Positions 45,195 through 60,788 of a stretch of 60,788 nucleotides of DNA are shown here, piece after piece. Origin of the DNA: Actinomycetota bacterium (GTDB lineage: Bacteria > Actinomycetota > Acidimicrobiia > Acidimicrobiales > Ilumatobacteraceae); the NCBI GenBank assembly GCA_043747765.1, contig JAYTOM010000112.1, positions 1 to 60,788 on the forward strand, in the 5' to 3' direction. How positions within the stretch are numbered: the first letter of the stretch is position 1; the number at the start of each line of letters is the position of its first letter. The notes under the pieces are model-generated. The model had not been told where the DNA came from, searched no databases, and was given only the letters and a program-made list of their open reading frames with translations. The position numbers were made by a program, and so were the translations under genes.

Positions 45195-45284
45195 CGGGCG
45201 TACTGACTCGCTCTCGTTGCCGCGCTTTTCCCGGCGATGCCATGTTAGATTGCGATGTTCCTGAGTGCCCTTCGAGGGCCCTGA

Positions 45285-45357
45285 GGGCGATTAGCTCAGT
45301 TGGTAGAGCGCTACGTTCACACCGTAGAGGTCATCGGTTCGAGACCGGTATCGCCCA
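45285..45357 (+). tRNA. tRNA-Val: tRNA-Val (anticodon CAC)
   Basis: A cloverleaf was folded by hand. The acceptor stem is GGGCGAT/ATCGCCC. The anticodon arm is CTACG-TTCACAC-CGTAG, and the T-arm is ATCGG-TTCGAGA-CCGGT. The discriminator is A. CCA is not encoded. Confidence 0.9.
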
Positions 45358-45358
45358 C
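45315..45358 (+). repeat. attL core: 44-bp tRNA-Val 3' segment (copy 1 of 3)
   Basis: Identical to 58366..58409, and 43/44 identical to 60109..60152. Confidence 0.9.
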
Positions 45359-45445
45359 TAGATAACCCCAGCTCAGAGGGTATAGACGCTCAGCAACTGA
45401 CGAGGTTGCTTGACTGTCTGTGGGACGCGTGGGACGATGCGTCCC

Positions 45446-46522
45446 ATGAGCATCGAGAAACTGCCTTCTGGGAAGTACCGCGGCACCGTCCGTCACGATG
45501 GCAAGAAGGCCTCTACGCAGGCGTTCGCGACACGTGCTGAGGCTGCCATGGCAGAGGCACAACTGAAGATGAAGATGGGCGGTACGCCCGATGCCAGCGA
45601 GGTGACGATGGGGGAGCTGTTGCTCACTCATCTGGCTGAGAATGGCTACTCGCCAACGACTCACGCTGACGTTCTCAGAGTCATCACGAAGCTGCCCGAT
45701 GCCTTCAAGTCAAGGGCCGTTGCTGACGTGACGCCGCACATCCTCTATGGGCTGTACAAGCAACTGGCCGAGGAAGGCTGGACCGTCTACAGCATCCGGC
45801 GTGTGCATGAGACAGTCGGCAGTGCATACCGCAAGCGTGCCATTCCGTTCAGGTGGGCCGCGACCAACCCAGCACGTGACGTACAGCCCCCAGCACTGCC
45901 GCCCACAGAGATCCACCCACCGACAGTGGACGAGGTACGCACGATTCTGCAGGGGGCCGATGGGGCATTCGGTGCCTACTTGAAGCTGTCAGCCAACAGC
46001 GGGGCGCGGCGTGGCGAGATGCTTGCACTGCAGTGGCAGGACATGGACCTCGACCTCGGCCGTGTCGTGATCCGCAGATCGATCGTGAACACCCCAGCCA
46101 CCGGTATGACGGTACGTGAGACGAAGACAGGCAAGAAGGGCCATCGCGTGATCGGCGTGGGGCCTGGCATCGTGGGGGAGCTGAGAGCACATCGAGATGA
46201 GCAGAAGGCAGCCGCTGATTCCAATGGCCTACCGGCCCCTGTGTGGGTCTTCAGTCACGATGGTGGAATCACACCATGGCGCCCTGACTACATCACCTTG
46301 AAGTTCAACCGACTTCGTAAGACCCTGGGGCTGGATCACGTGAGGTTGCACGACCTTCGCCACTTCGTTGCCACCAAGATGCTGGGCGATGGTGTGCCGT
46401 TGGCAACCGTGTCCAAGAGGTTGGGCCATGCTCGTGCATCAACCACGCTCGATCGATACTCCCACTGGATGCCCCAGCAGGATCAGGACGCAGCTGACAG
46501 CCTGGACGCTCTACTGAGCTAG
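45446..46522 (+). CDS. int: tyrosine-type site-specific integrase
   Basis: MSIEKLPSGKYRGTVRHDGKK.. is an AP2-like N-terminus. The C-terminal catalytic blocks are ..GARRGEMLAL.., ..HDLRHFVAT.. and ..GHARASTTLDRYSH.. (alternative ATG 45437). Confidence 0.9.
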   Translation: MSIEKLPSGKYRGTVRHDGKKASTQAFATRAEAAMAEAQLKMKMGGTPDASEVTMGELLLTHLAENGYSPTTHADVLRVITKLPDAFKSRAVADVTPHILYGLYKQLAEEGWTVYSIRRVHETVGSAYRKRAIPFRWAATNPARDVQPPALPPTEIHPPTVDEVRTILQGADGAFGAYLKLSANSGARRGEMLALQWQDMDLDLGRVVIRRSIVNTPATGMTVRETKTGKKGHRVIGVGPGIVGELRAHRDEQKAAADSNGLPAPVWVFSHDGGITPWRPDYITLKFNRLRKTLGLDHVRLHDLRHFVATKMLGDGVPLATVSKRLGHARASTTLDRYSHWMPQQDQDAADSLDALLS

Positions 46523-46722
46523 TTGAGGCCACGTACAAGGGTGGCGCACTCGGCGCGTTCCACTGCAGCGATGCTGAACACCCACCGACCGGCCCCCGGC
46601 CCCATGATCGGCATCACTGGTGCTGTACCAGTTCGTACGGCACGCTTAATCGACTCTGGATGCAGGCCCCATCGCTGGGCCAATTGATCGGTTGTCAGAG
46701 TGAGGCAATCAACGGCATTCAT
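46519..46722 (-). CDS. xis: excisionase/AlpA-like helix-turn-helix DNA-binding protein
   Basis: 67 aa, with ..LTTDQLAQRWGLHPESIKRAVRTG.. HTH. It is convergent with int and shares a 4-nt CTAG stop overlap. Confidence 0.65.
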   Translation of the reverse strand: MNAVDCLTLTTDQLAQRWGLHPESIKRAVRTGTAPVMPIMGPGAGRWVFSIAAVERAECATLVRGLN

Positions 46723-46948
46723 GTTCGTTCTCCATGTGCGGAGCGCTGTGCAGCGCTGTCAGGACTGTTACTCAACCATTCTGGTTACGCGCATGTCAAC
46801 AACGCTGCAGCACCCATATCGAAACTATGGGCAATGAAGCTGAACAGCGAGAGCGTGGAGACGACACATGAGGGGGCCAGTTCCAATCCAAGACGGTTGC
46901 TCAGCTGCTTCGCTTGCCCCGCATCAGTGGCCACAGGCTCGCTGCTGA

Positions 46949-47440
46949 CCGCCCGGGCGCAGTAACTGTGGGGGGCTGGCGGCCTCCGAAGCTGGGGTCG
47001 ACAAGGTGGTCATAGAGCGCCTGTTGATGAGACTCTGGGAGACCGAAAGTACTACGCCCAAGGTCAATGTTCGAGCCCTCGTGGACGCACTTGCGGCCGA
47101 CCGGACGGCCTTGGAGGATCTGTCGACACAGCGCTTCATCAAGCGCACAATTCCGGCTGACCTGTTCGACAAGCTGTCCTCAGAGCTGTCCGACAAGATT
47201 GCCGTTACCGAGTCCGAGATTGAGCGTGCTTCGCGGTTCGGTGTCGGGGGACCGATGACACTGCAGTCACTTAGCGCACGCGTCATCGAGTTCGGCCCCT
47301 ATGCAGATTGGAATGCAGCCGATCCGAATCAACAGCGGAGCATTCTCCGCTCGATGGTGGAGCAGATTGTGATTCACCCTGCCAAGCATCTAGGTGGCAA
47401 CGTGTTCGATCCTGACCGCGTGGAACTGGTCTGGCGCTGA
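46949..47440 (+). pseudogene. C-terminal relic of a large serine recombinase (coiled-coil/tail only)
   Basis: The frame is open from 46949. ..RALVDALAADRTALEDL.., ..QQRSILRSMVEQIVIHP....FDPDRVELVWR resembles a typical large-serine-recombinase C-terminus. No catalytic domain lies upstream. Confidence 0.5.
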
Positions 47441-47864
47441 CGGTAGATGGTTCGTCCACCGCAGGCGGGCTGTGAGAGGTCTGCTGATCATGGGCCCACG
47501 AGCAGTGGACTCACCGTAGACAAGGCGTTCGCGAAGCCAAGTGCCGCAGCTCGATGTCCCTTCCTTCCTGTTTACTTGTTCCAGGTTCCGCTTAGTTTTG
47601 CATAGTATGAATTAACCCATAATGAATCGCGAATTTGCCCTCGCCATTCTTGACTGGCGACCCTCCAATAGTCTATATTGACCCCCATGGAATCACGAGC
47701 GCAGAAGATATCCAGAGGTGCCAATCCAAGAACGTTTGGCGCCCGGGGGCGACCGCTGACGATCGTTCGGCCTTTCACCTTCGGGGATCGATCGGTTTGG
47801 AAGACCAGCGTCAATCGAGATCTTTCTGTCACGTCGCAACTCTCTTGGAAGAACTGAGCGGCGG

Positions 47865-48449
47865 GTGTTTACTCCGACCTACATCAAGCGCCGACCTATG
47901 GGGCGCACCTTTGCGAAGAAGGGCCGGGCTTGTACTCAGGCGCGGGAGTGTGACAGGACCTATCTCCGCAACTTCGGGCGACAGATTGCGGCTCTAGTTG
48001 AGCCACGGCTCCGCCAGAATTGCCATGGTTGGCGCAAGGGTCATTCGGTGGCGACGGCCGTGAGCGATATCGAGTCAAGAGTCGGCAATCGGGTCGTGTG
48101 CGACGTGCATCACTACTTTCCAACCGTCGATCAGGTTCGCCTACGCAAGATGGTCAACAAGCTCGATGCCACTTTGTGGTCGGAGATAGCGCCATGGCTA
48201 CCAGAAACAGGGTTGCCGACGGGGTGCGCCATTTCAAGCCCTCTCGCCAACCTCTATCTCAGCGACATTGATCGGCGGTTTCCCATCGTCCGATACGCGG
48301 ACAACTTTCTCGTGACAGCCGATGACACAGAACGGGTCTTGCGCAAACTTCAACGGCACCTCGACGACATCGGCCTACAGATGCACGAGGTCGAACACAA
48401 TCCAGCGCGCTTCTGCGGAACCCTTCTCGGCCCCATCAAGGGGCGCTAA
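47865..48449 (+). CDS. miniature reverse-transcriptase-like protein (fingers/palm only; YADN)
   Basis: RT blocks appear in order: TYIKRRPMGRTF, CHGWRKGHS, VVCDVHHYFPTVD, GLPTGCAISSPLANLYL, RYADNFLV, GLQMHEVEH..FCGTLLG. GTG start. There is no N-terminal extension and no thumb domain. It may be a relic. Confidence 0.6.
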   Translation: MFTPTYIKRRPMGRTFAKKGRACTQARECDRTYLRNFGRQIAALVEPRLRQNCHGWRKGHSVATAVSDIESRVGNRVVCDVHHYFPTVDQVRLRKMVNKLDATLWSEIAPWLPETGLPTGCAISSPLANLYLSDIDRRFPIVRYADNFLVTADDTERVLRKLQRHLDDIGLQMHEVEHNPARFCGTLLGPIKGR

Positions 48450-49129
48450 TTCGACATGTAGTTCCGTCGGTATTGCACCGATCGAACGAGTAACCAGCGC
48501 CCATGCCCTTCGCACGAGTGGGGATGTGGTGCGTGATCCAGCGTGGGCTCCATGATGGTGTCCTATGGGGATCAGGCGACGGCATCGGCACGGATGCCGT
48601 TACGGGCGGGGTATTCAGCACTGCGGCTGTCTACACCCTCTGCAAGAATGCCCTTTGTCCTCGCAGGCTTTGACCGGGACAATGGGCGTACGTCGCACGA
48701 ACGAGGGATTGTTGTCACGATCCTGGTACTGGACGTACGGTAGCAAGACATTTTCCAGTGCAGCCTCCGATATCTCGGTTGGAGCCGGGGGCAGGTAGCA
48801 AGTATCTGGGTCGGAATGATGGCTGAATCGATCAAATATTGGGGCCTAGAGCCTATATTTCTGGGAATTCACAGAATCGAAGATGACACCAGGTAAACGC
48901 GTGTGCAACGGGGGCAGATAGCAACTACCAGGGTCTGACTGGCGTCAGCGAGGGCCTATCAAACCAACGATGTGCTGATCTCTGCCACATGTGGCCTAGG
49001 GGCCCCTCTGCTTGTTTTGGGCTGTTGAGGGTGGTCGGTCCCGTCGTACTTCACTCGCGCAATAGTCAATTGTCCGAGCGTCTCACGCCAAGGACGGTAA
49101 CGAGTACGGTGCCTGCCGGAGGTTCTGTG

Positions 49130-50632
49130 ATGCGAATGACAATGGTTCGATCTCGTTGGACGGCGTTTGGTGTGGTGTTGGCAACTTTCGTCGGATCAGG
49201 CGGCCTGCTGGGTGCGTCGGCCACTGGTCCCTCTGGCGGGTCCGTATTTGTGCCGATCACGCCGTGTCGCCTGTTGGACACTCGACCGTCCTCGACAGTG
49301 GGGCCGAGGGCCGTCGCATTGGGCGCGTCGGAGACTTACACCGTGGCGGTCACGGGCAACGCCGGTAACTGCAACGTCCCTTCGGGCGCTACTGGATTGT
49401 CCATGAACGTTGTCGCGATCGACCCGACTGGCTCGTCATATCTCGCTGTGTTTCCGGCGGACAAGCCTCTGCCGTTGTCTTCCAACCTGAACTGGATTGC
49501 TCGCCAGCCTCCTACGCCGAATGCCGTCACGGTCGCCGTGTCGGGCGATGGCCGAATCAGCTTTTTCAACAACGCTGGCGCAGTCGATCTGGCTGTCGAC
49601 ATCGTCGGCTACTACGCAACCTCGGCCGATGGACCCGCCGGACCGACGGGACTCACAGGACCTGTTGGCCCTGCTGGGCCGACTGGAGCTACCGGAGCCA
49701 CTGGGCCAGTTGGGGCAGTTGGGCCAGCAGGAGCCAACGGTTCTTCGAACCGAATAAACAACGCTCAGATCGCCCAACTCCGTTGGGACCAGGCGAAGAA
49801 CGCACTCTTTGCGACGGTAGCGGTCGGGTCGGAGCCGGTCGGCGTTGCTTTTGACGGGGTGAGCGTCTGGGTAGCCAACTACCTGGCGGGCTCGGTCTCG
49901 AAGATCAACCCAACCACGAACGCAGTGATTGCGACGGTCGCCGTGGGCAACAACCCGCAGGGCGTTGCCTTTGACGGAGCAAGCATTTGGGCGGTCAATA
50001 CCGGTGATGGCACCGTTTCCAAGATCAACGCCACATCTAATGTGGTCTCGGCGCCCATCACAGTCGGCAGCGGGCCGGTGTGGGCTGCGTTCGATGGCAC
50101 GAGCCTCTGGGTTTCAAACGGCGTGTCCAACACGGTGTCGAAGATCAATGTCACGACGAACGCCGTGACCGGCCCCTACGCCGTCGGAACCAACCCGAGT
50201 GGCGTGGTCTTCGATGGGACAAGCATCTGGGTAGCAAACGGCGGATCTGGAAACGTCTCAAAGATCAACCCGAACACGAACACGGTGATTGCCACAATCG
50301 GCGTCGGCAACGGAGCGAACGGAATTGCTTTCGACGGAACCAACGTGTGGGTTGCGAATTCGTCCGACGCCACCGTGTCGAAGATCAACGCCGCGACCAA
50401 TGCCGTATCGCCGCCCATCACCGTGGGCAGCAATCCGAACAGGATCGCGTTCGACGGGACCAGCGTTTGGGTTACGAACTACGGGTCCGGAACCGTATCC
50501 AAGATCGACCCGACGACGAACGCGGTGAGCACGCTCACGATGGGTGGAAATCCATCTGGAGTGGCATACGACGGAACCAACGTCTGGGTCGCTGACTTCG
50601 CCACGAGCATAGTTCGAAAGCTGCTGCCCTAA
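49130..50632 (+). CDS. secreted protein: unknown N-domain + collagen-like G-X-Y stretch + ~7 YVTN-type beta-propeller repeats
   Basis: ATG 49130 follows a GGAGG RBS, with signal peptide MRMTMVRSRWTAFGVVLATFVGSGGLLGASA. There are 37 aa of G-X-Y (49631..49741). A ~40-aa unit then repeats, e.g. ..VGxxPxGVAFDGxxVWVANxxxGTVSKINxxTNAV.. Confidence 0.8.
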   Translation: MRMTMVRSRWTAFGVVLATFVGSGGLLGASATGPSGGSVFVPITPCRLLDTRPSSTVGPRAVALGASETYTVAVTGNAGNCNVPSGATGLSMNVVAIDPTGSSYLAVFPADKPLPLSSNLNWIARQPPTPNAVTVAVSGDGRISFFNNAGAVDLAVDIVGYYATSADGPAGPTGLTGPVGPAGPTGATGATGPVGAVGPAGANGSSNRINNAQIAQLRWDQAKNALFATVAVGSEPVGVAFDGVSVWVANYLAGSVSKINPTTNAVIATVAVGNNPQGVAFDGASIWAVNTGDGTVSKINATSNVVSAPITVGSGPVWAAFDGTSLWVSNGVSNTVSKINVTTNAVTGPYAVGTNPSGVVFDGTSIWVANGGSGNVSKINPNTNTVIATIGVGNGANGIAFDGTNVWVANSSDATVSKINAATNAVSPPITVGSNPNRIAFDGTSVWVTNYGSGTVSKIDPTTNAVSTLTMGGNPSGVAYDGTNVWVADFATSIVRKLLP

Positions 50633-50648
50633 GTTTGCCCTGTGGATA

Positions 50649-50668
50649 ACACTCGTGGTCACGAGTGT
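50649..50668. promoter_or_regulatory. perfect inverted repeat ACACTCGTG-GT-CACGAGTGT (terminator or recombinase site candidate)
   Basis: 9-bp arms with a 2-bp centre. It lies 17 nt after the stop at 50632 and 23 nt before the serine recombinase GTG. Confidence 0.4.
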
Positions 50669-50690
50669 GAAACCCCTGTAGGGTGGGGCG

Positions 50691-51398
50691 GTGAAACAGA
50701 CTCCGAATCCCGAGCTGAACGCGGACCGTCCCGCAATCGGCTATCTGCGAGTATCCACAAACGTCCAGGCGAAGGACGGCTTTGGACTGGACGTTCAACG
50801 TGCGAGCATTGAGGCAACGGCCGATCGCATTGGGGCCAAGGTCGTGGTCTGGTGCTCAGACGAAGGAGTGTCGGGAACAGTCGAGGCGTTGGACCGTCCT
50901 GGGTTCAACTGCATTGTGGAGCACCTCAAGGCAGGAGACGCTGATCTTGTGCTCGTGCATCACGCCGATCGGCTCGCACGTACCCTCACGGTGCAAGAGG
51001 CCGCGCTCGCAGTGCTCTGGTCGAACAAGGCGACTGTGTTCATCGGCGGCGAAGAAGTGATTGCCGACGACCCGTCTGACCCTATTCGCACGATGGTTCG
51101 TCAAATCCTCGGGGCCGTGAACGAGTACGCACGTCGGGACGCGATGCTCAAGATGCATTCGGGTCGAAAGGCAATCCGACGCGCCGATCCCGCCCGGTAT
51201 ATCGGAGGCATCGTGCCAGCTGGGTGCGTCGTGATTGATGGCCGGCTCACCGCAACCCCCGAGTTCATCGACCAGATCAAGGGCATCCGTGAAGGGATTG
51301 CGTCTGGAATGTCAGCCAACGCGGTGGCCAAGGAGCTGGGCATGCATCCCCAGCAGATCAGCCGCCGCCTGGCCACGGCAACCCGTGTCGGCATCTGA
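50691..51398 (+). CDS. small serine recombinase (resolvase/invertase type) with C-terminal HTH
   Basis: ..AIGYLRVSTNVQAKDGFGLDVQ.. carries the catalytic Ser. ..LVLVHHADRLARTL.. is present, and the C-terminal ..MSANAVAKELGMHPQQISRRL.. is an HTH. Confidence 0.85.
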   Translation: MKQTPNPELNADRPAIGYLRVSTNVQAKDGFGLDVQRASIEATADRIGAKVVVWCSDEGVSGTVEALDRPGFNCIVEHLKAGDADLVLVHHADRLARTLTVQEAALAVLWSNKATVFIGGEEVIADDPSDPIRTMVRQILGAVNEYARRDAMLKMHSGRKAIRRADPARYIGGIVPAGCVVIDGRLTATPEFIDQIKGIREGIASGMSANAVAKELGMHPQQISRRLATATRVGI

Positions 51399-51668
51399 AC
51401 AACCTTGATGAGGTCCGACACGTACTACAAAGTCGTGCCGGGCGGGACGTTGTTTGACCGAACCGTCGATATCGCGAGAAACTTGGTGTTCACTTTCCAG
51501 CGGGATACTTTGGCGTCGATGACGTCGGCAAAGCCAGCGCTGTGTTTGAGCAGTTTGCGCCGTGTGACAAAGGGAGGGGCTCTATCGATCTGTACTGGTC
51601 GGTGACCTGAGTGAAGCCACAGCGATGGCGAGGATTGTGCCGAGCAGCTTCTTCAGGCTTGGATCCCG

Positions 51669-52847
51669 TTAGCTGACCACCATTCGAGGGTAACGAGGCT
51701 GGTACGCAGCCGGCGGCTCGTCACCAAAGAGGTGTGCGCCGATCGCAGCGCTGCAGCGCTGTGAGGCTGCGCCGTCCCCGTACGGTGACACGACCTCGGT
51801 CCCAGCGTGGTCTAGCGACTCTGTGGCATGTTTGAGGATAAGCGCACGGTCGGTGCCCACGAGCACGGCAGCTCCTGCGTCCACGGCTTCGCTGCGTTCG
51901 GTGACGTCCCGCAGTACGACGACAGGGCATCCGAGCGCCGGCGCTTCTTCCTGGACGCCGCCGGAGTCGCTGATCACGAGGCGTGACCGTCCGAGCAGTT
52001 GAGCGAAGTCCGAGTACGACAACGGATCGAGGAGGCTGATTGAGGGATGGTCGCCGACCACGGGGACGACGACGGCGCGCACGGCGGGGTTACCGTGCAG
52101 TGGCCAGATGACCCGGACATTCGCTGTGTCCGCAAGGTCGCGGATAGCAAGCGCGACGTTTCGCAGTGGTTCGCCCCATGATTCGCGCCGATGAGCGGTG
52201 ACTGTCACGATCGGCCGCTCGTCTGTGAGTGCATCTGCGAGGCCGCTGTCGATCAGAGGCGGTCGGCTCTTAAGGACGTGGTGAAGCGCGTCGATAACGG
52301 TGTTGCCCGTGACGAACACAGAATTGGCCGGGATGCCTTCGGCGAGCAGGTTGGCGGCGTTCGCTGCGGTAGGGGCGAGGTGGATAGCGGCGATCCGGCT
52401 GATCATCAATCGGTTGCCTTCTTCGGGGAATGGGCGGCCCAGGTCCCATGACCGCAGCCCAGCTTCGAGGTGGACCACCGGCGTCTCCGAATAGAACGCG
52501 GCAAGCGCCGCGATGAACGCAGTGGACGTGTCACCTTGAACGACGACCAGGTCGGGGCGATTCTGCTCGAAGGTTGTGGTGAGCTCGGCGAGGACCCGGG
52601 CGGAGAACGCGCTCAGCGTCTGGCCCGATTCGCCGGGCTTGAGCCGCACAGCAGGCGTCAGGTCGAACAGGTCGAGGACCTGGTCGAGCATCAGCCCATG
52701 TTGTCCAGTGGACACCGACAGCACTTCCAGCCGCGGGTCTCGCTGCAGTTCGTGGATCAACGGTGCGAGCTTGATCGCTTCCGGTCGGGTACCGAAGACG
52801 ACAGCGACCTTCTTACGCGTACCAGGGCCGGCGCTCGTGCCGGTCAC
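51669..52847 (-). CDS. wecB: UDP-N-acetylglucosamine 2-epimerase (non-hydrolysing)
   Basis: ..KVAVVFGTRPEAIKLAPLI.., ..VVQGDTSTA.. and ..LVISDSGGVQEEAPALG.. are present. GTG 52847 forms a GTGA overlap with the GT2 stop. Confidence 0.85.
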   Translation of the reverse strand: MTGTSAGPGTRKKVAVVFGTRPEAIKLAPLIHELQRDPRLEVLSVSTGQHGLMLDQVLDLFDLTPAVRLKPGESGQTLSAFSARVLAELTTTFEQNRPDLVVVQGDTSTAFIAALAAFYSETPVVHLEAGLRSWDLGRPFPEEGNRLMISRIAAIHLAPTAANAANLLAEGIPANSVFVTGNTVIDALHHVLKSRPPLIDSGLADALTDERPIVTVTAHRRESWGEPLRNVALAIRDLADTANVRVIWPLHGNPAVRAVVVPVVGDHPSISLLDPLSYSDFAQLLGRSRLVISDSGGVQEEAPALGCPVVVLRDVTERSEAVDAGAAVLVGTDRALILKHATESLDHAGTEVVSPYGDGAASQRCSAAIGAHLFGDEPPAAYQPRYPRMVVS

Positions 52848-54157
52848 GCAGGCACCGTCGCGCTCGCAGGCACCGTGGCGCTCGCTGGCACGTCGTCCAC
52901 GCGTTGGGTCTTCGCCCAGCCCTGGCGACGCAGTACGATCCGCCCGACGGCTCGCCAGGTCGCAACGTACCACGCGTAGTTGTAGACGGTTAGGAAGTGG
53001 ACGAGCACGAGCGTCCGGGGCCAGGAGATGTCACCTGCTTGGCGTTTGTAGATGGTTCCGAGCAGCCACGAGGGACCGAACGACAGCAAGTACAGCAGAG
53101 CGATGCTTCCCGAGTCGAAGGTGAACCCCGACACTACGGTGCCTCGGGCCATTGCCAGCACCAAAAGGATTGCCGGTAGCCCAAAGACGAGGCTAGCGAT
53201 GAGCGTGACAGCAGGCGCGGCGAGGTACCACGTCAGATCGAACGCGGAGATGGTCGACACTTCCGGCGAGCGCATTATCGCCGGGAGGTGCTTCCAGCAC
53301 TGGAAGTGCCCTTGCATCCACCGAGTCCGTTGCCGGGCGATGCGCCGAAGCGACGTCAGTCCCTGCTGCGCGACGTACGTCTGGTCGACGAAACGGTTGT
53401 TCCACCCGTTGAGAGCGAACCGGATGCCAAGGTCGAGGTCCTCAGTCAGGCAGTCAGTCCACGGTTCGTCGCCGAATTCGTCGAGCGCGCTAAGGCGGGT
53501 GAACTGCCCGTTGCCGCCCAGCCCAACACTGCCGAGGTGCTCGCGGGCGTTCTGGACGAACGTGCTGAATGTCAAGAATTCGTAGTCCTGGCAGCGCGCC
53601 AACCAGCCCGAGCCGCGGTTGATGATTCGCACTTGGATCTGCGCACCGCCAGTCAGCGGGTCCGTGAACGCCTCGCCGATCGAGTCGAGCACGTCGGACT
53701 GCAGCCGGCCGTCGGCATCGACGATGCCGACGATCACGACATCGTGTCGCAGCCCGCGGCTGTCAGCGTTTGCACGGATCAGTCGGTACGCGCAATTGAG
53801 CACCTCGCCTTTGCCCTGGCGAGCGTTGGGCAGCGTCCGTTCAACTAGAAGCACGTTGGGAGCTGCGATCGATCGGACGACGTCAGCGGTGCCGTCGTCG
53901 GAGCCGTCGTCGACCACGAGAATGGTGACGCTCTGGTCGGTGGAGATCGCAAGCAGCGAACGCACTGTGTTGGCGATTACTTTCGCCTCGTTTAACGCTG
54001 GGACGATGAAGTAGTAGGCGAACCCTGGCACTCGATTGTCGGTCGGCCATCTTCGACGGCGGCGCGAGAGGATCAGCATGAGCACCATGTAGCTGCCCAT
54101 GACGACGAACATCGCGGTGGCGAGCACCTCGACCATCGTCCCGATGGGAAGGCTCAC
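52844..54157 (-). CDS. membrane-embedded processive GT2 glycosyltransferase (PgaC/NodC/BcsA-like)
   Basis: ..VVDDGSDDGT.., ..IVDADG.., ..TEDLDLG.. and ..QRTRWMQG.. (QxxRW) are present, with N- and C-terminal TM helices. The C-terminal tail is encoded by an 18-bp tandem repeat (52851..52886). Confidence 0.8.
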   Translation of the reverse strand: MSLPIGTMVEVLATAMFVVMGSYMVLMLILSRRRRRWPTDNRVPGFAYYFIVPALNEAKVIANTVRSLLAISTDQSVTILVVDDGSDDGTADVVRSIAAPNVLLVERTLPNARQGKGEVLNCAYRLIRANADSRGLRHDVVIVGIVDADGRLQSDVLDSIGEAFTDPLTGGAQIQVRIINRGSGWLARCQDYEFLTFSTFVQNAREHLGSVGLGGNGQFTRLSALDEFGDEPWTDCLTEDLDLGIRFALNGWNNRFVDQTYVAQQGLTSLRRIARQRTRWMQGHFQCWKHLPAIMRSPEVSTISAFDLTWYLAAPAVTLIASLVFGLPAILLVLAMARGTVVSGFTFDSGSIALLYLLSFGPSWLLGTIYKRQAGDISWPRTLVLVHFLTVYNYAWYVATWRAVGRIVLRRQGWAKTQRVDDVPASATVPASATVPA

Positions 54158-54660
54158 GCCTTTACGGGCTGACGCCGGACCAACGTCATGCGTAGGAACG
54201 CCGCGCCAGCCAACAATGCGATCAGGCCGAGGCCCAAGATGCCGCCAACTGCCGCGCCGGTAGCGGGCAGACCGCCGTTCTCTCGGATCGTGATCGGGCT
54301 GGCGACCACGTGGGCGCCGTTCGACGCATCGTTGCCAAGCGCGACGACGGTGTGCGCACCGACCAGCAGCGGGACCGTGGCAGTCGCTTTAGCGACACCG
54401 GAGCTGTCGGCGACGACGGCCGCCAGGACAGTCGGATCCGAGTACAGCGTGAACGTCACGTTCGCTGACGGGGCGAAACCTGCCGCTTGCATGCTGAGAA
54501 GAGATCCGCTTGCGACCGACGCAGACGCGCCGCCATTGACCACCATCGCTGCGTCCACAGTCGTTGGCTTCACAGACGGCGGGACCGGGGCGGCCGAATC
54601 AGGTGCGCAGATGAACAACGCCGTAGCAAAACAGATGCCAGCGAGTGGTTTGGTGTACAT
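54154..54660 (-). CDS. secreted surface protein with an LPXTG-type sorting signal
   Basis: ATG 54660 follows a GAGAAGGA RBS, with signal peptide MYTKPLAGICFATALFICAPDSAA. The C-terminus has LPATG, a hydrophobic stretch and RRQ. GTGA overlap with the GT2 start. Confidence 0.65.
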   Translation of the reverse strand: MYTKPLAGICFATALFICAPDSAAPVPPSVKPTTVDAAMVVNGGASASVASGSLLSMQAAGFAPSANVTFTLYSDPTVLAAVVADSSGVAKATATVPLLVGAHTVVALGNDASNGAHVVASPITIRENGGLPATGAAVGGILGLGLIALLAGAAFLRMTLVRRQPVKA

Positions 54661-54931
54661 GAGATCCTTCTCTTCAAGGAGAACTGAGCGACGATACAAC
54701 GCCTCTCATGCAAAAGCAACGTGGAGTGGTCTATCCGTCACGCAAAGTCCTATAGCGCCCGACGGATCGCCGACCGCCGTCCTGCGAAGTGGTTGGAAGA
54801 TGCTGCCGTCGGTGTCGTCGGCTGGCCCGCGTCTGCATTGGTGTGTCGCTCTTGTCTGGAGCGTTGCTAATGCCGAGAGCAATGGCCGTGCTAGCGAGAT
54901 GGTGGGGCAAGTAGCCCACAGACCACAAACC

Positions 54932-55189
54932 ATGGCGTTCCTGTATGGATCTACACTTGGCTTTGGACCAAACAAGCGAAGGCAGCTAGAAGGCACGAAT
55001 GAGGGCGCATTCGTGAACGGTTTAAGCGTTCAGCTCCAACGGTCAGCCGCAGCATTACAGGTCACGCCTGAGCCGCCTGCGGACTCTGATCTAGTCGGAC
55101 AGCTTGAACGGCTCGCCGCTCTTCATTATTCAGGCGTACTCTCGGACGAGGAACTTCGCGCGGCGAAGCAGCAACTACTCGGACCGTGA
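54932..55189 (+). CDS. small SHOCT-domain protein
   Basis: The C-terminal ..LVGQLERLAALHYSGVLSDEELRAAKQQLLG fits the SHOCT pattern. The start is uncertain. The rest of track ORF 54188.. is antisense to the LPXTG gene. Confidence 0.4.
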   Translation: MAFLYGSTLGFGPNKRRQLEGTNEGAFVNGLSVQLQRSAAALQVTPEPPADSDLVGQLERLAALHYSGVLSDEELRAAKQQLLGP

Positions 55190-55538
55190 CCTGGCGAACG
55201 TGGGGCAACGGGCTCGACTCTCGCTTATCGGAACCACGCGACCAACTTTCCGACTAGGTAGATCAGCGGAGTGGCGATGGTGGCCACTTCCGCGAGCTTG
55301 GAAATGAGACGTTTGTTGGAATCGCGCTGAGGTTTCACTGCCTGTTCTATCGGTGGTGGCCGCGCACGACATGAGACTTTGCTCCTACAACTCCAAAGTA
55401 GATCGGCATCTCGACGTCTGATCTAAAGTCTGTGTGACAAAAGTCACTGTTTGGACTGACTGCGCGAAGTCATCTGACCAATTGCGAGCGGAGCGTTCCG
55501 AACGCCACACCACGACGGGCTGCATGCGAAACTTCACT

Positions 55539-56084
55539 ATGGAACTCGATGACCAACTTTCGTGGCTAATTGGTCGCGTGGTGCGCGTGGGCGCTCTGGC
55601 CGAGATGGAGGCTCGTCGTGTCCAGTTGGCGTTGCTGGGTGACAGTCTGGCGGCGTTTATGCCACACACAATGCATATGAATGCCACTCTCGGTTCGATC
55701 GAGGCGATGGTGAAACACGCAGATCTTGACCCCGACCGACTCTCACTCGCCTTACGAGTTGTCGTTGATTCGAGGACCGCTAATTCCGAGCGCAACAGGT
55801 GCGTGCATGACATCTGGTACCCGAACTCAGACGTGGAGGCTGATTCGTGGATTCGCCTTCGCTGGCAGAAGGCGTTCGATTTGAACGACGAGCCCCCTGC
55901 CGTGAAGCCGCTGGTGAGCAGGGCGGAACTTGGACGGACAGTTGAAGACCTTGATAGCGCTGGTTACAAACTGAACTGCCTGATGCGTTGCCTCGTAGCC
56001 ACGCTGCCGAGTTGGGCGGCTGCTCGGCCCGAGCCGTTCGACTACGCAGCGCCATGGACTGAGTTGGCGCTGGCGTTCGACTGA
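55539..56084 (+). CDS. hypothetical helical protein with an R-N-x3-H (HEPN-like) motif
   Basis: ..ANSE-RNRCVH-DIW.. lies at codons 55791..55808. Alternative starts are ATG 55524 and GTG 55434. The sequence is lower-GC cargo DNA. Confidence 0.4.
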   Translation: MELDDQLSWLIGRVVRVGALAEMEARRVQLALLGDSLAAFMPHTMHMNATLGSIEAMVKHADLDPDRLSLALRVVVDSRTANSERNRCVHDIWYPNSDVEADSWIRLRWQKAFDLNDEPPAVKPLVSRAELGRTVEDLDSAGYKLNCLMRCLVATLPSWAAARPEPFDYAAPWTELALAFD

Positions 56085-56249
56085 ATGTCTGTCGAGGGTG
56101 GTGCCGGGCCACTTTCGGTCAAACCTGCTACGAATGACACGCTAACTCTTGCAAGCACTGGGGGTTTATATCCCTACGGCGAGGCCTTCTGAATGTTCTT
56201 TGGCGGATCTCGGGGCGCGTGTTCGAAACCTTGCGCCACAATCAAGCCC

Positions 56250-57137
56250 ATGGATCCAATAACAATCGCAGCAGCCGCAAAGGTTGCATCTTCGGTGGAC
56301 AAGTCCGACGGCCTTCTGAAGCGTGTGCTGGGGCCACCCGCCGATGCTTTGGGCGTAGCCCTGGGCCGCTTCGTGGAGGCACGCACTCAGAACGTCGGGC
56401 GAATTCTGGAGAATGCGGACACCAAGTTGGGTGCTAGAGGCGATCGCCCCGAGAAGGTTCCAATGCGCATTGCGGGGCTCTTGATGGAGGATTGCAGCTA
56501 CTGCGACGAACCGATAATGGTCGAGTACATCGGCGGAGTGCTGGCCTCATCCCGTTCTGGAGTATCCAGGGACGATCGAGGGGCGAAGTGGATGAAGCTC
56601 GTCCTGCAACTCTCCACCTACGAACTTCGTGCTCATTACATCGCGTATCAGGCAACTCAGCTCGCGCTCCGCGAACGCAACGCTCGTCGCAACTGGACGG
56701 ATGTCAATGATGCGGCGGCGTTTGGCCCAATGTGCATCCCCTACAAAGATTTCATGTCAGCAATGGACTTCGTATTAGGCGAGCCGCAGGACGAGATAGT
56801 CTCGGAAACAGTATTCGGGCTCTCCAGGGCCGGCCTGCTCGACCAGTTCTCGTTGTTCACACCGCTCACCTTTGAAGTGGTTCATCAGCGTCAGTCCCAC
56901 CCAACGGGGATGTTGACGTTCATGCCCACTGTTCCGGGCATACACCTATTCCTGTACGCCTTGGGAATGGGCGACCTTCCGATCAGCGCGTTCGACGATC
57001 CCGAGGTGAATGTGCCGGGGCTGGAGGGGGTGGCGTGCAATCCAGCCACTCTGTTCGTGGACGTTGCTCCCTTCACCAGCGAGCAAATGTCAGAGCGAGC
57101 GCAGAGGGCCGTCTCTGATGCCCTGAATCACCCTTAG
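56250..57137 (+). CDS. Abi-alpha/DUF4393-like protein
   Basis: MDPITIAAAAKV..LLKRVLGPPADALGVAL..RTQNVGRILENA..VPMRIAGLLMEDCSYCDEPIMVEYIGGVLASS..LQLSTYELRAHYIAY matches the family pattern from memory. Confidence 0.55.
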   Translation: MDPITIAAAAKVASSVDKSDGLLKRVLGPPADALGVALGRFVEARTQNVGRILENADTKLGARGDRPEKVPMRIAGLLMEDCSYCDEPIMVEYIGGVLASSRSGVSRDDRGAKWMKLVLQLSTYELRAHYIAYQATQLALRERNARRNWTDVNDAAAFGPMCIPYKDFMSAMDFVLGEPQDEIVSETVFGLSRAGLLDQFSLFTPLTFEVVHQRQSHPTGMLTFMPTVPGIHLFLYALGMGDLPISAFDDPEVNVPGLEGVACNPATLFVDVAPFTSEQMSERAQRAVSDALNHP

Positions 57138-57199
57138 GTTTCTGGTGCTTCCCAAACCGCTCCGGACAGCTTTCATCATCTTCGATCATCAGCGGCAGT

Positions 57200-57533
57200 T
57201 GACGACCCGTCTGATCCCATTCGCACGATGGTTCGTCAGATCCTCGGAGCCGTGAACGAGTACGCGCGTCGGGACGCGATGCTCAAGATGCATTCGGGTC
57301 GGAAGGCGATTCGACGTGCCGATCCTGCTCGTTACATAGGAGGCATCGTGCCAGCTGGGTGCGTCGTGATTGATGGCCGGCCAACCGCAACCAGCGACTT
57401 CATCGAGCAGGTCTCTGCCATTCGTGAAGGGGTTGCGGCTGGAATGTCAGCGAACGCTGTAGCGAAGGAGCTGGGTATGCATCCGCAGCAGATTAGCCGC
57501 CGACTTGCGACCGCAGCGCGTGTTGGGATCTGA
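57200..57533 (+). pseudogene. 5'-truncated paralogue of the serine recombinase gene (C-terminal 110 codons only)
   Basis: About 90% identical to 51066..51398, in direct orientation. Homology starts abruptly at GACGACCCGTCTGA. No catalytic domain lies upstream. Confidence 0.8.
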
Positions 57534-57680
57534 ATCCGAAGAACACGACGATGTTTGCTTACTAGGGCTCACCGGGCCAAAGCCCGACCACCGGGGATCG
57601 GGGCCGAGGACTTCGACACCGACCGATAGAGGAATGCCGACCAGACCCCCGACCGTAGTCGTTTCCAGACCTCCACCACG

Positions 57681-58241
57681 GTGGGCGGTAACGTCCGTGG
57701 CGTGGGACCACAGCTTGCGTCGATTGGAACACTCGCTTGGGTCGGTGTTGGTCTTCAGTTGATGGGTGGTGCCATCACGATCTTCGGCTTCAACCAGACC
57801 ATGAAAGAGATGATGCCTGGCTCAAACGGACTACCGATCATCAGCCACATCGTGAAGAGCGCTCGATGGGCGATGCGGAAGATGGGCCGCAAACCTCCGA
57901 CGCAGTTTCTCGGAACGGGCTCCATGCACCTGGGCCTAACGACGATGAGTGCCCACGCAGTCGTCACCGCTGGGCCTGATTGCACGATCGAGCACAGGTT
58001 GGAAATCTTGGAGCAAAGCATCGCGGCCGTACACGCGAGGGTGGGCGCACAAGAGATCAATGCAAGGAACGAAGTCGCCAAGGTCGACGCACGCGTGGAC
58101 GAAGTGCAGCGTCAGATTGGCCAGCTCGATCAGCAAATGAAACAGCGAATCGTCGGTGGCCCGAAGGGTGGGGGACTCCAGATCGCGGCTAGTGGCGTGG
58201 CACTCGCCATGATCGGAACATTGCTCAGCGCTATCGGTTGA
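57681..58241 (+). CDS. hypothetical membrane protein: TM - coiled coil - TM
   Basis: There is an N-terminal hydrophobic helix, a heptad-like middle (..EILEQSIAAVHARVGAQEINARNEVAKVDARVDEVQRQIGQLDQQMK..) and a C-terminal hydrophobic helix. GTG start. Confidence 0.4.
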   Translation: MGGNVRGVGPQLASIGTLAWVGVGLQLMGGAITIFGFNQTMKEMMPGSNGLPIISHIVKSARWAMRKMGRKPPTQFLGTGSMHLGLTTMSAHAVVTAGPDCTIEHRLEILEQSIAAVHARVGAQEINARNEVAKVDARVDEVQRQIGQLDQQMKQRIVGGPKGGGLQIAASGVALAMIGTLLSAIG

Positions 58242-58365
58242 GTGGGCTGATTTCGTGGGACGCTGTGGGACGAAACCTCGCAACAGGCCACACATGAGGC
58301 ATGTCGAGAATCGTCTGAGCTGGGACTATGTGTCGAGAGTAGTCACGACATGACCACTGAAGCCT

Positions 58366-58409
58366 GTTCACACCGTAGAGGTCATCGGTTCGAGACCGGT
58401 ATCGCCCAC
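58366..58409 (+). repeat. attR of island 1 / attL of the remnant: 44-bp tRNA-Val 3' segment (copy 2, 44/44)
   Basis: Exact direct repeat of 45315..45358. Confidence 0.9.
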
Positions 58410-58693
58410 CAGGTCAGCCGTAGTAAACGGTTGACTGTTAGGTCAGCCGGAGACGCCCGTGAGACGTTTCTTCGTGCGTTCGTTGTGCCGTGCCGGCGGA
58501 GACGCGTGCGTGGACGTGTTTGCAGTCGGGTGCGATCGCCTCCGACGACGACGCACACGCAGCAAGCTGGCGGGCGTATGTTCCCAGGAACACAATTGGC
58601 AGATGTGCTGCCCGTTGTGTTCCTGGGGAAACTCGCCGAGCAGACCACTTGAATTGTGCTGAGCCCCGTCGGTGGTCGGAGTGCGATTTCGCG

Positions 58694-58924
58694 ATGACGT
58701 TCACTCGGATCACGGTCGATGCGGTGCGCATGGGTGGCTTGCCGTGTGTTCGTGACCTTCGGTTTCCCGTTGCGTCAGTGGTCGCGATGGTCGCTCACCG
58801 AATGACCGTCGATGAGATCCTCGATGAGCATGCAGATCTCGAGGCTGAAGATGTGGCTGAGTGCCTGCCGTACGCAGCGCTTGCCGTGCAAGAACGCGAG
58901 CTGCCGCTGCGCCAGCCGGCGTGA
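58694..58924 (+). CDS. DUF433-family antitoxin-like protein
   Basis: ..ITVDAVRMGGLPCVRDLRFPVASVVAMV..MTVDEILDEHADLEAEDVAECLPYA.. is the DUF433 pattern. Confidence 0.7.
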   Translation: MTFTRITVDAVRMGGLPCVRDLRFPVASVVAMVAHRMTVDEILDEHADLEAEDVAECLPYAALAVQERELPLRQPA

Positions 58925-59193
58925 GGTTTCTGATCGACCAGAACCAGTCGCCGTTGCTCGTCGAACTGATCGCAGTTCATGGTCACGATGTCGCCCATGC
59001 CCGCGATCGTGGCCGGTCCGGAGCGCCGGACCGCCACGTTCTGGAAGTGGCGATCGACCGGAGCAGCATCGTTGGCGTTTCCTCTGTCATCGGATCTTGG
59101 TCCGCTGGACTTACAGCAGGAGGACGAATCGTGTGTACGGTCGGTCTTCCGGAGGATAGCTCTCGTTGGCCTCGGGGAACACGGATCGGCTGA
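58921..59193 (+). CDS. DUF5615 (PIN-like, Mut7-C type) toxin-like protein, possibly degenerate
   Basis: GTGA overlap with the DUF433 gene. The N-terminal VRFLIDQNQSPLLVELI..GHDVAHARD.G..GAPDRHVLE fits DUF5615. The C-terminal half lacks the usual DxDF block. Confidence 0.5.
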   Translation: MRFLIDQNQSPLLVELIAVHGHDVAHARDRGRSGAPDRHVLEVAIDRSSIVGVSSVIGSWSAGLTAGGRIVCTVGLPEDSSRWPRGTRIG

Positions 59194-59590
59194 AGGCGAT
59201 CGACGCAAGATTGGTTGGGTAGACGAGCCAGTGGACGTAGCGGACATCATTCCGTTGCATGTCTGCGATGACGGACTCGGCGAGCGTGCTCGCGATGCCG
59301 TCTCGGCGATGGTCGTGTCGAACGGCGACGACCATCAGGTAGCGCTCGGCGGGTATTGGCCCGTGTTGGTCGTCTTCGCCGAGTTCGTGCGCAGCGACGG
59401 CCACGACCTCGCCCCTGATGTCAGCGACGACGACCCGTCGATCGAGGTCTGCTCGGGTCTCGTCGTCGCGCCATGCAATGAGGCCGGACAGGATCTCAGA
59501 GATCTCGCTGAGCCAGATCGTGGGTTGTGGCCCGAGGTCGAAGTCCTGGAGCGCCAGTTCGTCACTGCGCGCGGCGTCACGGAGGATCAC
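59111..59590 (-). CDS. GNAT family acetyltransferase (toxin candidate)
   Basis: GTG 59590 forms a GTGA overlap with the XRE gene stop. ..YLMVVAVRHDHRRDGIASTLAESVIADM.. is GNAT motif A-like. Confidence 0.6.
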   Translation of the reverse strand: MILRDAARSDELALQDFDLGPQPTIWLSEISEILSGLIAWRDDETRADLDRRVVVADIRGEVVAVAAHELGEDDQHGPIPAERYLMVVAVRHDHRRDGIASTLAESVIADMQRNDVRYVHWLVYPTNLASIAFSRSVFPEANESYPPEDRPYTRFVLLL

Positions 59591-59910
59591 CGCTCGGCGT
59601 CGCCGATCTCGAGGACCTTGCCGCGAGGTATCCACTTCTTCGGGGCGCCCGTCGGCGTTGCAGTCGTGGTCTTGCGGCCGTTGGACAGGCTGCGCTGGGG
59701 GAGTGAGGCTGGATCGGCGAGTGCTGCGGAAAGTCGCTGGATGGTCGACCAGCGGGCATCCAGCCGGCCGTTCTCGATGCGCGAGATGTCGGCTTGGGGC
59801 ACGCCGGTCCGCTTCGACAGCTCTGCTTGCGTCCAGCCAAGTTCGGCTCGGCGTTCACGGATCGAGTCACCTGGGTGTGAGAGTTCAGCGAGTGTCGACC
59901 AGGAAGTCAT
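59587..59910 (-). CDS. XRE-family helix-turn-helix protein (antitoxin candidate)
   Basis: ..IRERRAELGWTQAELSKRTGVPQADISRIENGR.. is present. The ORF was trimmed to ATG 59910. Confidence 0.75.
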   Translation of the reverse strand: MTSWSTLAELSHPGDSIRERRAELGWTQAELSKRTGVPQADISRIENGRLDARWSTIQRLSAALADPASLPQRSLSNGRKTTTATPTGAPKKWIPRGKVLEIGDAER

Positions 59911-60108
59911 GCCGCAAGTGTATGTGGGAAAACACATAGTCTCAAGTGTGTTTCGCCGAGAATGCCTCAGATACCTTCACAACGTCCCGTGAGACGCTCG
60001 TGAGACGTTTTGCGACAACAGGCCACGATTCGGCTGTGTCGGCTGTGTCGGCTGTCGTCGCGAGTGGTCCTGACCTGCGGTTTGTTGTTTTCTGCAGCGC
60101 CTGGATCT

Positions 60109-60152
60109 GGTTCACACCGTAGAGGCCATCGGTTCGAGACCGGTATCGCCCA
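60109..60152 (+). repeat. distal att: 44-bp tRNA-Val 3' segment (copy 3, 43/44; T to C at 60125)
   Basis: Direct repeat of 45315..45358 with one mismatch. Confidence 0.88.
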
Positions 60153-60363
60153 CCGAATAAGACCTGCTCAGCGGTATTGCATTCAAAATTGTCGGAGTTG
60201 AGATCTCCGCCAGGTGCACACCAGGTGCACAGGATTTTCTGGCACTATGCATCACCAGGTGGACAAATTGAGCTTCAGGCGGACCCAGACGGCCGGGCTG
60301 GACTGAGGTCGCCAGTGGAGGAACCGGCCGCCGACCGTTTGGCAGCCGATGTTGACCGAACAC

Positions 60364-60788
60364 TTAACCTCGATCCACCGATTGGGTTTGGGTGTTGGTC
60401 GTGGTGGGGCGAACGGGGTCGGGTTGGTGGTGTGGGGGCTGAGGGTGGGTCAGCGGGTTCGTAGAGGCTTGTGGTGGACGTGGCGAGGCGGGTGTGGTGC
60501 GATCGCGGGTTGTCAGCGCTGGGGGTGGTGTGCGGTGCGCCTGGCCGCGATGGCTGTTTCGGCCGGTCGCTGGTTGCAGGGCGCGTAGTGCCTCAAGCGC
60601 TGTGGTGAAGGACTTCGCCCAGGGCCAGTCGGTCGGCAATGCGCAGGGTTGGTCGTCCGGCGCGGTTGACGAGACGGCCGGGGATCGTCAGGAGTCGGGT
60701 GCGGATCGTGCGGTGGCGACGAGTTGGTTGTCGACACGGACGCGCCCAATGGTCGCTGTCCAGCGGATCATGTTGTGAGCGTGGACAG
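60364..60788 (-). pseudogene. IS1380-like transposase C-terminal fragment, frameshifted; continues beyond the window end
   Basis: One frame reads ..RTIRTRLLTIPGRLVNRAGRPTLRI.. The next frame continues LPTDWPWAKSFTTALEALRALQP.. The switch is near 60636..60646. The family call is from motif memory. Confidence 0.45.

Follow-up and report, generated by a model that had tools for sequence, protein, structure and literature searches.

A predicted thumbless miniature reverse transcriptase and a covarying stem-loop directly 3' of its gene in an actinobacterial tRNA island

Prokaryotic reverse transcriptases (RTs) that work together with a structured RNA encoded beside them are known from several systems. 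In the UG/Abi defence RT systems (DRT2, DRT9, DRT10/UG17 and DRT3), a stand-alone RT is accompanied by an adjacent conserved structured element resembling a non-coding RNA (ncRNA), and this RNA either is needed for defence or serves as the template of the product (PMC9226505, PMC12039810, PMC12483538, PMC12632851). Retrons likewise combine a small RT with a contiguous structured ncRNA, the msr-msd, placed 5' of the RT between inverted repeats (PMC7736814), and retrons are often found on prophage-like or integrative elements; the RT of a diversity-generating retroelement (DGR), bRT, is a small enzyme that depends on an RNA scaffold and a partner. In this report, we describe a miniature RT gene (mini-RT) within a 60,788-nucleotide (nt) stretch of DNA from an actinobacterium of the Ilumatobacteraceae (contig JAYTOM010000112.1 of assembly GCA_043747765.1), hereafter the window. 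Its layout, an RT next to an ncRNA, is known from the systems above; its size, the lack of a thumb, an Asp-to-Asn change at the active site, the position of the RNA 3' of the RT and its linkage to an integration module differ from them. On balance, we lean towards reading the locus as a functional thumbless mini-RT with a cis-encoded structured 3' RNA, borne on an island and most likely serving defence or exclusion.

The product of the mini-RT gene belongs to the RVT_1 superfamily, as judged by its profile score, its fold match and the retention of D80 and D146. The open reading frame (ORF) scored 30.9 bits against Pfam RVT_1 over residues 44-170 (cutoff, 29.6 bits), the generic PADLOC RT model matched it with an E-value of 8.8e-22, and its top NCBIfam match was the group II RT/maturase model TIGR04416, of which it covered profile positions 75-246 of 353 with 54.3 bits (cutoff, 300 bits). 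The motif A Asp is D80 (48102-48104), and motif C reads YADN (48294-48305), in which D146 is followed by N147, that is, the second catalytic Asp is replaced by Asn. Motif 4 is of the 'GxPxGxxxSPxLxNxxL' type and is separated from motif 5 by 9 residues, and the ORF terminates about 10 residues past motif 7, the primer-grip motif, with no thumb/X domain. GTG 47865 is the earliest ATG, GTG or TTG past the in-frame stop at 47757-47759. An AlphaFold2 model based on an alignment of the family reached a predicted local distance difference test score (pLDDT) of 94 and a predicted template modelling (TM) score of 0.88, and Foldseek matched this model to RT cores with probability 1.0 and TM-scores of 0.77-0.80, including GsI-IIC (0.77) and the DGR RT bRT (0.80; root-mean-square deviation, 2.4 Å); further matches were retron, G2L4, DRT9 and DRT2 RTs and the isolated CART-CAPP RT domain. 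The profile of the family, when compared with solved RTs, ends at the end of the palm, for example near residue 250 of 428 in GsI-IIC. On this model, the protein is a complete fingers-palm RT core without a thumb. A preliminary description of the locus, made from the sequence alone, had listed the RT motifs in canonical order, the YADN box, the short spacing between motifs 4 and 5, the stop after motif 7 and the GTG start with no earlier start codon after the stop at 47757, all of which we confirmed; it had also suggested profile searches and structure prediction, of which the former established the RT domain, with the threshold of no specific RT family being reached, and the latter returned a complete fingers-palm fold at the pLDDT given above.

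The mini-RT has few relatives. A word-indexed search retrieved only five homologues, of 175-253 amino acids (aa) and 48-82% identity, and a profile search about 25 relatives of 131-253 aa. Below the family, scores drop from 172 bits (116 bits for one 131-aa fragment) to 76 bits, and beneath this gap come group II-like RTs of about 300 aa and then intron RTs of at least 400 aa. An exhaustive phmmer search over 1.84 billion representatives gave 26 proteins at E<1e-10, nearly all of 130-300 aa, followed by generic RTs; altogether, the family amounts to about 27 clusters. Members typically measure 165-250 aa; in the two 'long' ones (278 and 300 aa), the extra length is a low-complexity tail without a domain, which arises where the frame reads through into the hairpin region downstream. 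Outside the family, the closest relatives belong to the group II-like RTs and reach 233-300 bits with TIGR04416. A single member was present among 185,579 GTDB species genomes, in the Actinobacteria metagenome-assembled genome casp-actino5, and a scan of JGI metagenomes added four; the other members come from metagenomes, one of them labelled freshwater. A pattern scan of IMG/VR gave 0 matches, and plasmid and phage records held only RTs of less than 36% identity, none spanning the whole protein, and no family member. The family is small, rare and uncharacterised, and it appears to be undescribed so far: we found no description of YADN, thumbless or miniature prokaryotic RTs in the literature, a result that comes from incomplete coverage and is absence of evidence only.

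Sequence comparison within the family revealed that the mini-RT is a live, selected gene. Relative to the RT of locus L006 (family loci are given by number), which is 82% identical, the ORF has 20/18/63 mismatches by codon position, and the independent pair L015 and L025 has 29/16/88; this bias towards the third codon position in two independent pairs indicates purifying selection on the RT gene. The position of the N-terminus is kept across the family, as (M/V)-x-x-P-(S/T). In an alignment of 25 sequences, D80 of motif A is invariant, and F85, R57, D146 and N147 are each at least 90% conserved; F85, five residues past D80, occupies the steric-gate position of RTs, and R57 is the finger Arg. 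Some distant members (P0116, P0117 and P0120) keep the canonical DD, and DN and DD therefore look interchangeable.

Conservation continues past the RT gene. Several homologues have C-terminal 'extensions' (...GIAP(T/E)...), and these match the post-stop sequence of the window in another frame; this pointed to conservation at the nucleotide level, and the conserved sequence is a stem-loop (HP1) with the family consensus GTAG, a 7-nt arm, GGTAYYGCACC, the complementary arm and CGAGTGA. Because the RT stop codon lies before, within or after HP1, depending on the locus, this conservation is not that of a peptide. In an alignment of 14 distinct loci evaluated with 500 shuffles, 85.6% of the HP1 cells were in standard pairs (65% when shuffled), 8 of the 11 pairs had changed on both sides, and the covariation score was 0.53, compared with 0.17 for shuffled alignments (0 of 500 reached the observed value) and at most 0.13 when the partner columns were slid. 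The hairpin at 48461-48487 noticed in the preliminary description, which had proposed covariation analysis, is thus present and strongly conserved, and it covaries. A covariance model of HP1 found exactly one match per family locus, on the RT strand and just 3' of the ORF, with 41-55 bits, and no other match in 256 kb, including nine loci with non-family RTs. In L080, the most divergent member tested, the GUAG...CGAGUA base is kept on a different and longer stem. Since its orientation is fixed and its distance from the RT stop codon is 0-110 nt, we read HP1 as an RNA element of the + strand. No partner for a pseudoknot with the HP1 loop was found at a consistent position. As a lead only, the invariant base 5'-GUA-G...C-GA-3' resembles a bulged-G (sarcin-ricin/loop E) module, a common protein-recognition motif. 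We also noted that the tail after HP1 (CGAGTGAC, 48487-48494) is complementary to 48040-48051, the string encoding G-H/R-S of motif 2 some 380 nt upstream, and that equivalent positions are complementary in L005, L010, L025 and L081. This could be long-range pairing within the mRNA or a chance match of two conserved strings; it is confounded by coding constraint and was not used as evidence.

HP1 opens a conserved non-coding segment of about 280-350 nt. Between L015 and L025, the 330 nt past HP1 are 81-98% identical, as against 64-88% in the ORF, and identity is at background level beyond about +330; in other locus pairs, conservation peaks at +200 to +350. Subgroup alignments combined with local folding revealed more hairpins with compensatory differences, such as GACGGUGC...GCACCGUC in L005 versus GGGGGUGC...GCACCCCC in L081, whose counterpart in the window lies at 48650-48687. 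By its pattern of substitution, the segment is non-coding: its mismatches with L006 are spread 33/36/33 over the codon positions with 16 gap columns, many of the indels that separate both flanks from those of L006 are not multiples of three, and tblastx similarity is seen in close pairs only, in all six frames and with frame switches, with no peptide shared across subgroups. A thumb hidden in another frame or in a small downstream ORF was considered and rejected, as tblastx joins only close pairs and the long members are read-through. The flanks had been described as devoid of ORFs and of lower G+C content (GC), which holds, and they have no codon periodicity. Rfam gave no match in the segment of the window or in 12 family loci. 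A further hairpin reported earlier, at 48579-48600, does fold in the window but has no family-wide counterpart; it lies in the stretch least conserved with L006 (63% identity), and its counterpart there can fold a hairpin in a different register only. The downstream segment is probably the RNA partner of the mini-RT, and the compact RT plus ncRNA module proposed in the preliminary description is therefore supported for the downstream flank, where HP1 covaries at the head of the conserved segment, but not for the upstream one.

By sequence and fold, the mini-RT is nearest to the group II, G2L and CRISPR RTs, with GsI-IIC, LtrA, Cas6-RT-Cas1 and CART-CAPP as top structural or profile matches. 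In contrast to a group II RT, however, it is less than half as large, lacks RT0, the 2a/3a insertions and the thumb/X, D and En domains, and has YADN in place of YADD. The maturase profile GIIM/PF08388 gave no match in the mini-RT, and Rfam, even when searched at permissive E-values, returned neither Intron_gpII nor D1-D4 for the window and 12 family loci. A group II intron remnant was thus rejected, as there is no intron RNA and no maturase domain and all relatives are short. The likeness to CRISPR-associated RTs (Cas6-RT-Cas1, CART) is confined to the RT core; no cas genes occurred among the neighbours scanned, and a direct-repeat scan of 45200-60788 found no CRISPR-like array.

The mini-RT resembles the UG/Abi defence RTs not only in layout but also in its location in islands, often with restriction or defence genes. 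These enzymes are of 400-500 aa or more and have C-terminal domains, compared with the 194 aa of the mini-RT, and its module is, unlike theirs, linked to an integrase and an HTH_17 gene. The ncRNAs of DRT2 and DRT9 are encoded upstream of the RT, whereas the RNA of the mini-RT begins inside or just past the 3' end of the RT ORF. PADLOC UG17 (1.6e-10) and UG26 (2.7e-10) match only residues 113-175, in the palm; no UG/DRT profile reached its family threshold, and NCBIfam Drt2, Drt3a and Drt4 scored far below their cutoffs. Retron RTs have a similar core but measure about 300 aa and possess a thumb-like C-terminal region, unlike the mini-RT. The retron profile NF038233 gave 20.4 bits against a cutoff of 235, the PADLOC retron RT models gave weak, partial matches, and no strong long inverted repeats were found flanking the mini-RT. 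A retron was rejected because the element lies 3' of the RT, flanking inverted repeats are absent and no Rfam retron matched in the window or in 12 loci. The best TM-score and deviation to the model belong to the DGR RT bRT, as given above, but the mini-RT has no Avd-like gene and carries SP in motif 4, where the DGR signature is SQ. Neither flank nor the ORF has a second copy in the window (blastn, word size 7), and a DGR was rejected for want of a template/variable repeat copy in the window. The preliminary description had been unable to place this RT in a known class, and our comparison agrees, as none of the hallmarks tested for group II, retron, DGR, UG/DRT or CRISPR RTs was found; its comparison with retrons, DRT2 and DRT9 holds as an analogy of layout but not as membership, since the RNA is 3' rather than 5' and no profile threshold was reached.

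Different from the downstream segment, the upstream flank looks, from its sequence, like a promoter and leader and not like part of the conserved RNA, because it is not conserved family-wide and an HTH_17 gene abuts the RT elsewhere. Positions 47441-47864 are 81% identical to L006, with mismatches of 21/25/24 by codon position and 11 gap columns, and both promoter-like hexamers (Table 1) are kept in L006; conservation of this flank is restricted to that closest relative. Apart from the promoter-like site, we read the flank as leader or intergenic DNA that does not code. The GC of the flanks is 0.54-0.60, versus 0.62-0.68 nearby. Four loci have an HTH_17 gene on the strand of the RT: in L005 and L081 this gene runs 8 nt past the RT start, and in L001 and L085 a gap of 30-40 nt separates its end from the RT; tblastn detected no HTH_17 remnant upstream of the RT in the window. 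Many contigs of the family (L007-L009, L011, L013, L015, L024-L027, L082 and L083) break off within 130-820 nt upstream of the RT start, as might be expected if a repeat that breaks assemblies or a junction that varies between strains lay there.

Repeated DNA sites also accompany the RT. A palindromic motif, GATAGCAAC(TAYC), occurs beside it in nearly all family loci, in 2-4 copies that are often about 55 nt apart (window, L005, L010, L012, L014, L015, L024-L027, L081 and L084). In most loci, the array precedes the RT or the HTH_17-RT pair; in the window, L006, L001 and L027, it follows the RNA segment. Exact RRTAGCAAS sites number four in the 60.8 kb, of which three cluster at 48739, 48794 and 48917; the sites fall within a 33-nt direct repeat (48786-48818 and 48909-48941), and a 16-mer search for the site gave 2 matches against 0.25 expected. 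The arrays are probably protein-binding DNA sites, with operators, iterons and arm-type sites as candidates.

The mini-RT resides on an island at a tRNA gene. The 3' half of tRNA-Val is present three times as a direct repeat (45316-45358, 58367-58409 and 60111-60153), and these copies mark off first an island of some 13 kb and then a further unit of some 1.7 kb, an arrangement consistent with tandem integrations at the same tRNA. A tyrosine integrase lies no more than 2.7 kb upstream of the RT in 6 of the 8 loci with enough flank, and the identities of integrase and RT co-vary: they are 73% and 62% between L005 and L081 and 55% and 55% between L005 and L085, and the window and L001 are mutually closest for both proteins. 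tRNA genes lie 1-9 kb from the RT in L005 (4057-4130, Arg-CCT), L001 (789-884, SeC) and L012 (13326-13399, Ala-GGC), which suggests that islands with this family use several tRNA targets. Neighbouring genes include McrBC and HEPN/SNF2 genes in L001, DndB, Eco57I and SNF2-PLD genes in L012, SLFN/AlbA_2 and AAA_15 ATPase genes with FtsK-like genes in L014, and a large ORF in L015 that is helicase/restriction-like as judged by reading its sequence. The island of the window carries genes for a UDP-GlcNAc 2-epimerase, a GT2 glycosyltransferase, a secreted collagen/beta-propeller protein and a resolvase. The earlier placement in a tRNA island beside recombinases is therefore borne out by the tRNA-Val and the integrase, but the Abi-like genes it mentioned were not among the island genes scanned in the window; the defence role it suggested is plausible in view of the neighbours in L001, L012, L014 and L015, whereas the cargo of the window itself is of the surface-modification kind.

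Table 1. Features at and around the mini-RT gene in the window
Feature	Position	Strand	Remarks
Miniature RT gene	47865..48449	+	GTG start; 194 aa; fingers and palm only; motifs 1-7
HP1, conserved stem-loop	48458..48493	+	Begins 8 nt past the RT stop codon; contains the hairpin 48461-48487
HP1, GTAG	48458-61
HP1, 5' arm	48462-68
HP1, GGTATTGCACC apex	48469-79
HP1, 3' arm	48480-86
HP1, CGAGTAA	48487-93
Remaining conserved non-coding segment, putative RNA of the 3' untranslated region (3'UTR)	48494..48735	+	3' end approximate; conserved blocks versus L006
Conserved CACTGCGGC	48619-48627	+	Within the downstream segment
HP2, second long hairpin	48650-48687	+	Within the downstream segment
Promoter-like site, TTGACT-N18-TATATT	47650..47679	+	10/12 consensus match only; about 185 nt upstream of the RT start
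Three RRTAGCAAS / GATAGCAACTAYC-type sites	48739..48929	+	48739-48747, 48794-48802 and 48917-48925
tRNA-Val	45285-45358	+	Island anchor
Tyrosine integrase	45410-46522	+	Island anchor, after tRNA-Val
HTH_17-like (excisionase/MerR-like) small gene	46519..46722	-	HTH_17 23 bits, cutoff 27; PHROG excisionase/regulator
144-aa ORF like the C-terminal part of large serine integrases	47006..47440	+	phrog_95, E 1.1e-5, positions 454-573 of 651

We propose a model whereby the family is a reduced offshoot of a group II-intron-like RT lineage. The RT gene would be co-transcribed with the structured segment of about 280-350 nt, which would form the 3'UTR of the RT transcript, and the RT would bind HP1 in cis on its own transcript. 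The RNA may then stand in for the missing thumb by holding the duplex, and it may provide the template and/or the initiation site for a short complementary DNA (cDNA); the RT-RNA unit would travel with GATAGCAAC-type arrays, HTH_17 and a tyrosine integrase in tRNA-integrated islands. By analogy with retrons, DRT2, DRT9 and DRT10, and indeed with all non-mobile bacterial RT-ncRNA pairs characterised so far, and because defence genes neighbour the RT in other loci, the role that we favour most is island-borne phage defence or exclusion; regulation or replication of the island is a close second, because integrase and RT co-vary and the cargo of the window is not defence-related. A more ambitious version of the model, which we entertain with considerable reserve, would make the family the smallest natural RT lineage, with a native Asp-Asn pair, active only as a ribonucleoprotein with the RNA of its own 3'UTR as surrogate thumb, initiation site and template, and forming, together with HTH_17, the integrase and the repeated binding sites, the conserved core of a family of actinobacterial tRNA-integrating islands in which reverse transcription is coupled to immunity or propagation.

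Several observations weigh against the reading of a functional RT with a 3' RNA in a defence island. The second catalytic Asp is Asn in most members, and such a change inactivates some RTs; in addition, absence of the thumb means poor holding of the duplex unless another part substitutes for it. The wobble cells of HP1 are 8 G.U and 8 A.C, pairing that does not tell which strand folds, and HP1 may be a hairpin of the DNA or of the minus strand. Folded as a whole, the 3' segment of the window has an unexceptional minimum free energy (z = -1.69), and no family-wide structure emerged beyond HP1, where MAFFT aligns the segment within subgroups only. The island of the window carries surface-modification rather than defence genes, and the loci were chosen via the RT, so the pattern of a conserved RT with variable neighbours is partly a selection effect. 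With regard to the active site, Asn at the second position of motif C need not abolish catalysis, because mononegavirus RNA polymerases natively have GDN as their motif C and DD and DN coexist in the family; Asn is still able to ligate a metal ion.

Two alternatives would assign the locus to what is already known, and both are contradicted by much of the evidence above. According to the preliminary description, the locus might be a decayed relic; in that case, the ORF would be a pseudogene remnant from the interior of a group II intron or retron RT, lying between junk flanks. The ORF indeed corresponds to an internal portion of its closest outside relatives, group II-like RTs of 300-440 aa, and the region is ORF-poor and of lower GC, but close homologues are equally short with the same start and end, the third-codon-position bias is strong, a compact fold is predicted with high confidence, neither intron RNA domains nor N- or C-terminal RT parts were found (the latter in the other frames of the flanks), and the downstream element covaries. 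The short homologues, the purifying selection, the complete fold and the lack of RT parts in other frames refute the relic, to which we assign the smallest probability of all. It is also very improbable that the locus is a minimal DGR, with a template repeat copied into a target, or a minimal retron that makes multicopy single-stranded DNA from an msr-msd. The top structural matches include a DGR RT and retron RTs, and a gene for a repeat-rich surface protein lies downstream; against this stand the lack of a second copy of the flanks in the window, SP rather than SQ in motif 4, the absence of long flanking inverted repeats, the 3' rather than 5' position of the RNA, a retron profile score of 20 bits versus 235 and the empty Rfam search.

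The other two alternatives accept a selected gene and a conserved hairpin and differ in what these do. The protein could be a catalytically dead, RT-like RNA-binding protein that binds the stem-loop in its own 3'UTR for autoregulation or, with HTH_17, for control of excision, and that makes no cDNA. The Asn at the second catalytic position in at least 90% of the family, the missing thumb, the translational coupling that several loci show between the RT gene and an HTH_17 gene of regulator or excisionase type, and the operator-like site arrays nearby are all in favour of this possibility, which we consider unlikely while granting it a real chance. A dead active site would not be expected to retain the motif A Asp without exception and the first motif C Asp, the steric-gate Phe and the finger Arg nearly so; moreover, distant members keep the canonical DD, and Asn can serve as a metal ligand. 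Alternatively, the mini-RT may be a replication or propagation factor of the island, in which polymerase and hairpin act on, or prime, DNA at a GATAGCAAC-marked origin and so serve the excised island. The co-variation of integrase and RT, the proximity of the integrase in 6 of 8 loci (no more than 2.7 kb), the iteron-like arrays with their spacing of about 55 nt, the equal G.U and A.C counts, which favour neither strand and neither RNA nor DNA for the hairpin, and the non-defence cargo of the window would all suit such a factor. Nevertheless, to our knowledge no integrative element is replicated by an RT, a conserved relaxase or Rep partner is lacking, no family member occurs in plasmid or phage records, and the fixed orientation of the hairpin at 0-110 nt from the RT stop fits co-transcription better; we judge this explanation to be less probable still than a dead enzyme.

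If active, the mini-RT would bring the smallest size of a natural RT down to about 190 aa, from the roughly 290-330 aa of retron, DGR and small UG RTs. An active family would also demonstrate that an RNA can replace the thumb, and it would allow one to ask, in a natural enzyme, whether YxDD can do without its second Asp. A partner RNA located in the 3'UTR of the enzyme itself, and not upstream, would be a distinct arrangement among RT-ncRNA systems, and a polymerase so small would be of interest for compact editing or recording tools. The stable linkage to an integrase, an excisionase-type HTH gene and repeated sites raises the possibility that integrative islands themselves use reverse transcription, for which we know of no precedent among such elements. 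The hosts are uncultured bacteria, in which the biology of mobile elements and defence is poorly explored.

Other genes and repeats of the island are as follows. The 144-aa ORF upstream of the mini-RT lacks the catalytic N-terminal domain of large serine integrases, and its mismatches with L006 (9/4/33 by codon position) indicate purifying selection; L006 has a 1-nt indel at about 47279, inside the region of this ORF. The gene 3' of the mini-RT module, ORF 49130-50632, looks secreted and contains a collagen-like Gly-X-Y stretch together with seven 120-nt (40-aa) YNCE-type beta-propeller repeats at 49841-50592. Further downstream, a 300-nt direct repeat (51066-51365 and 57201-57500) has two copies that are 88% identical and 6.1 kb apart, the first of which overlaps the 3' end of the resolvase gene at 50691-51398.

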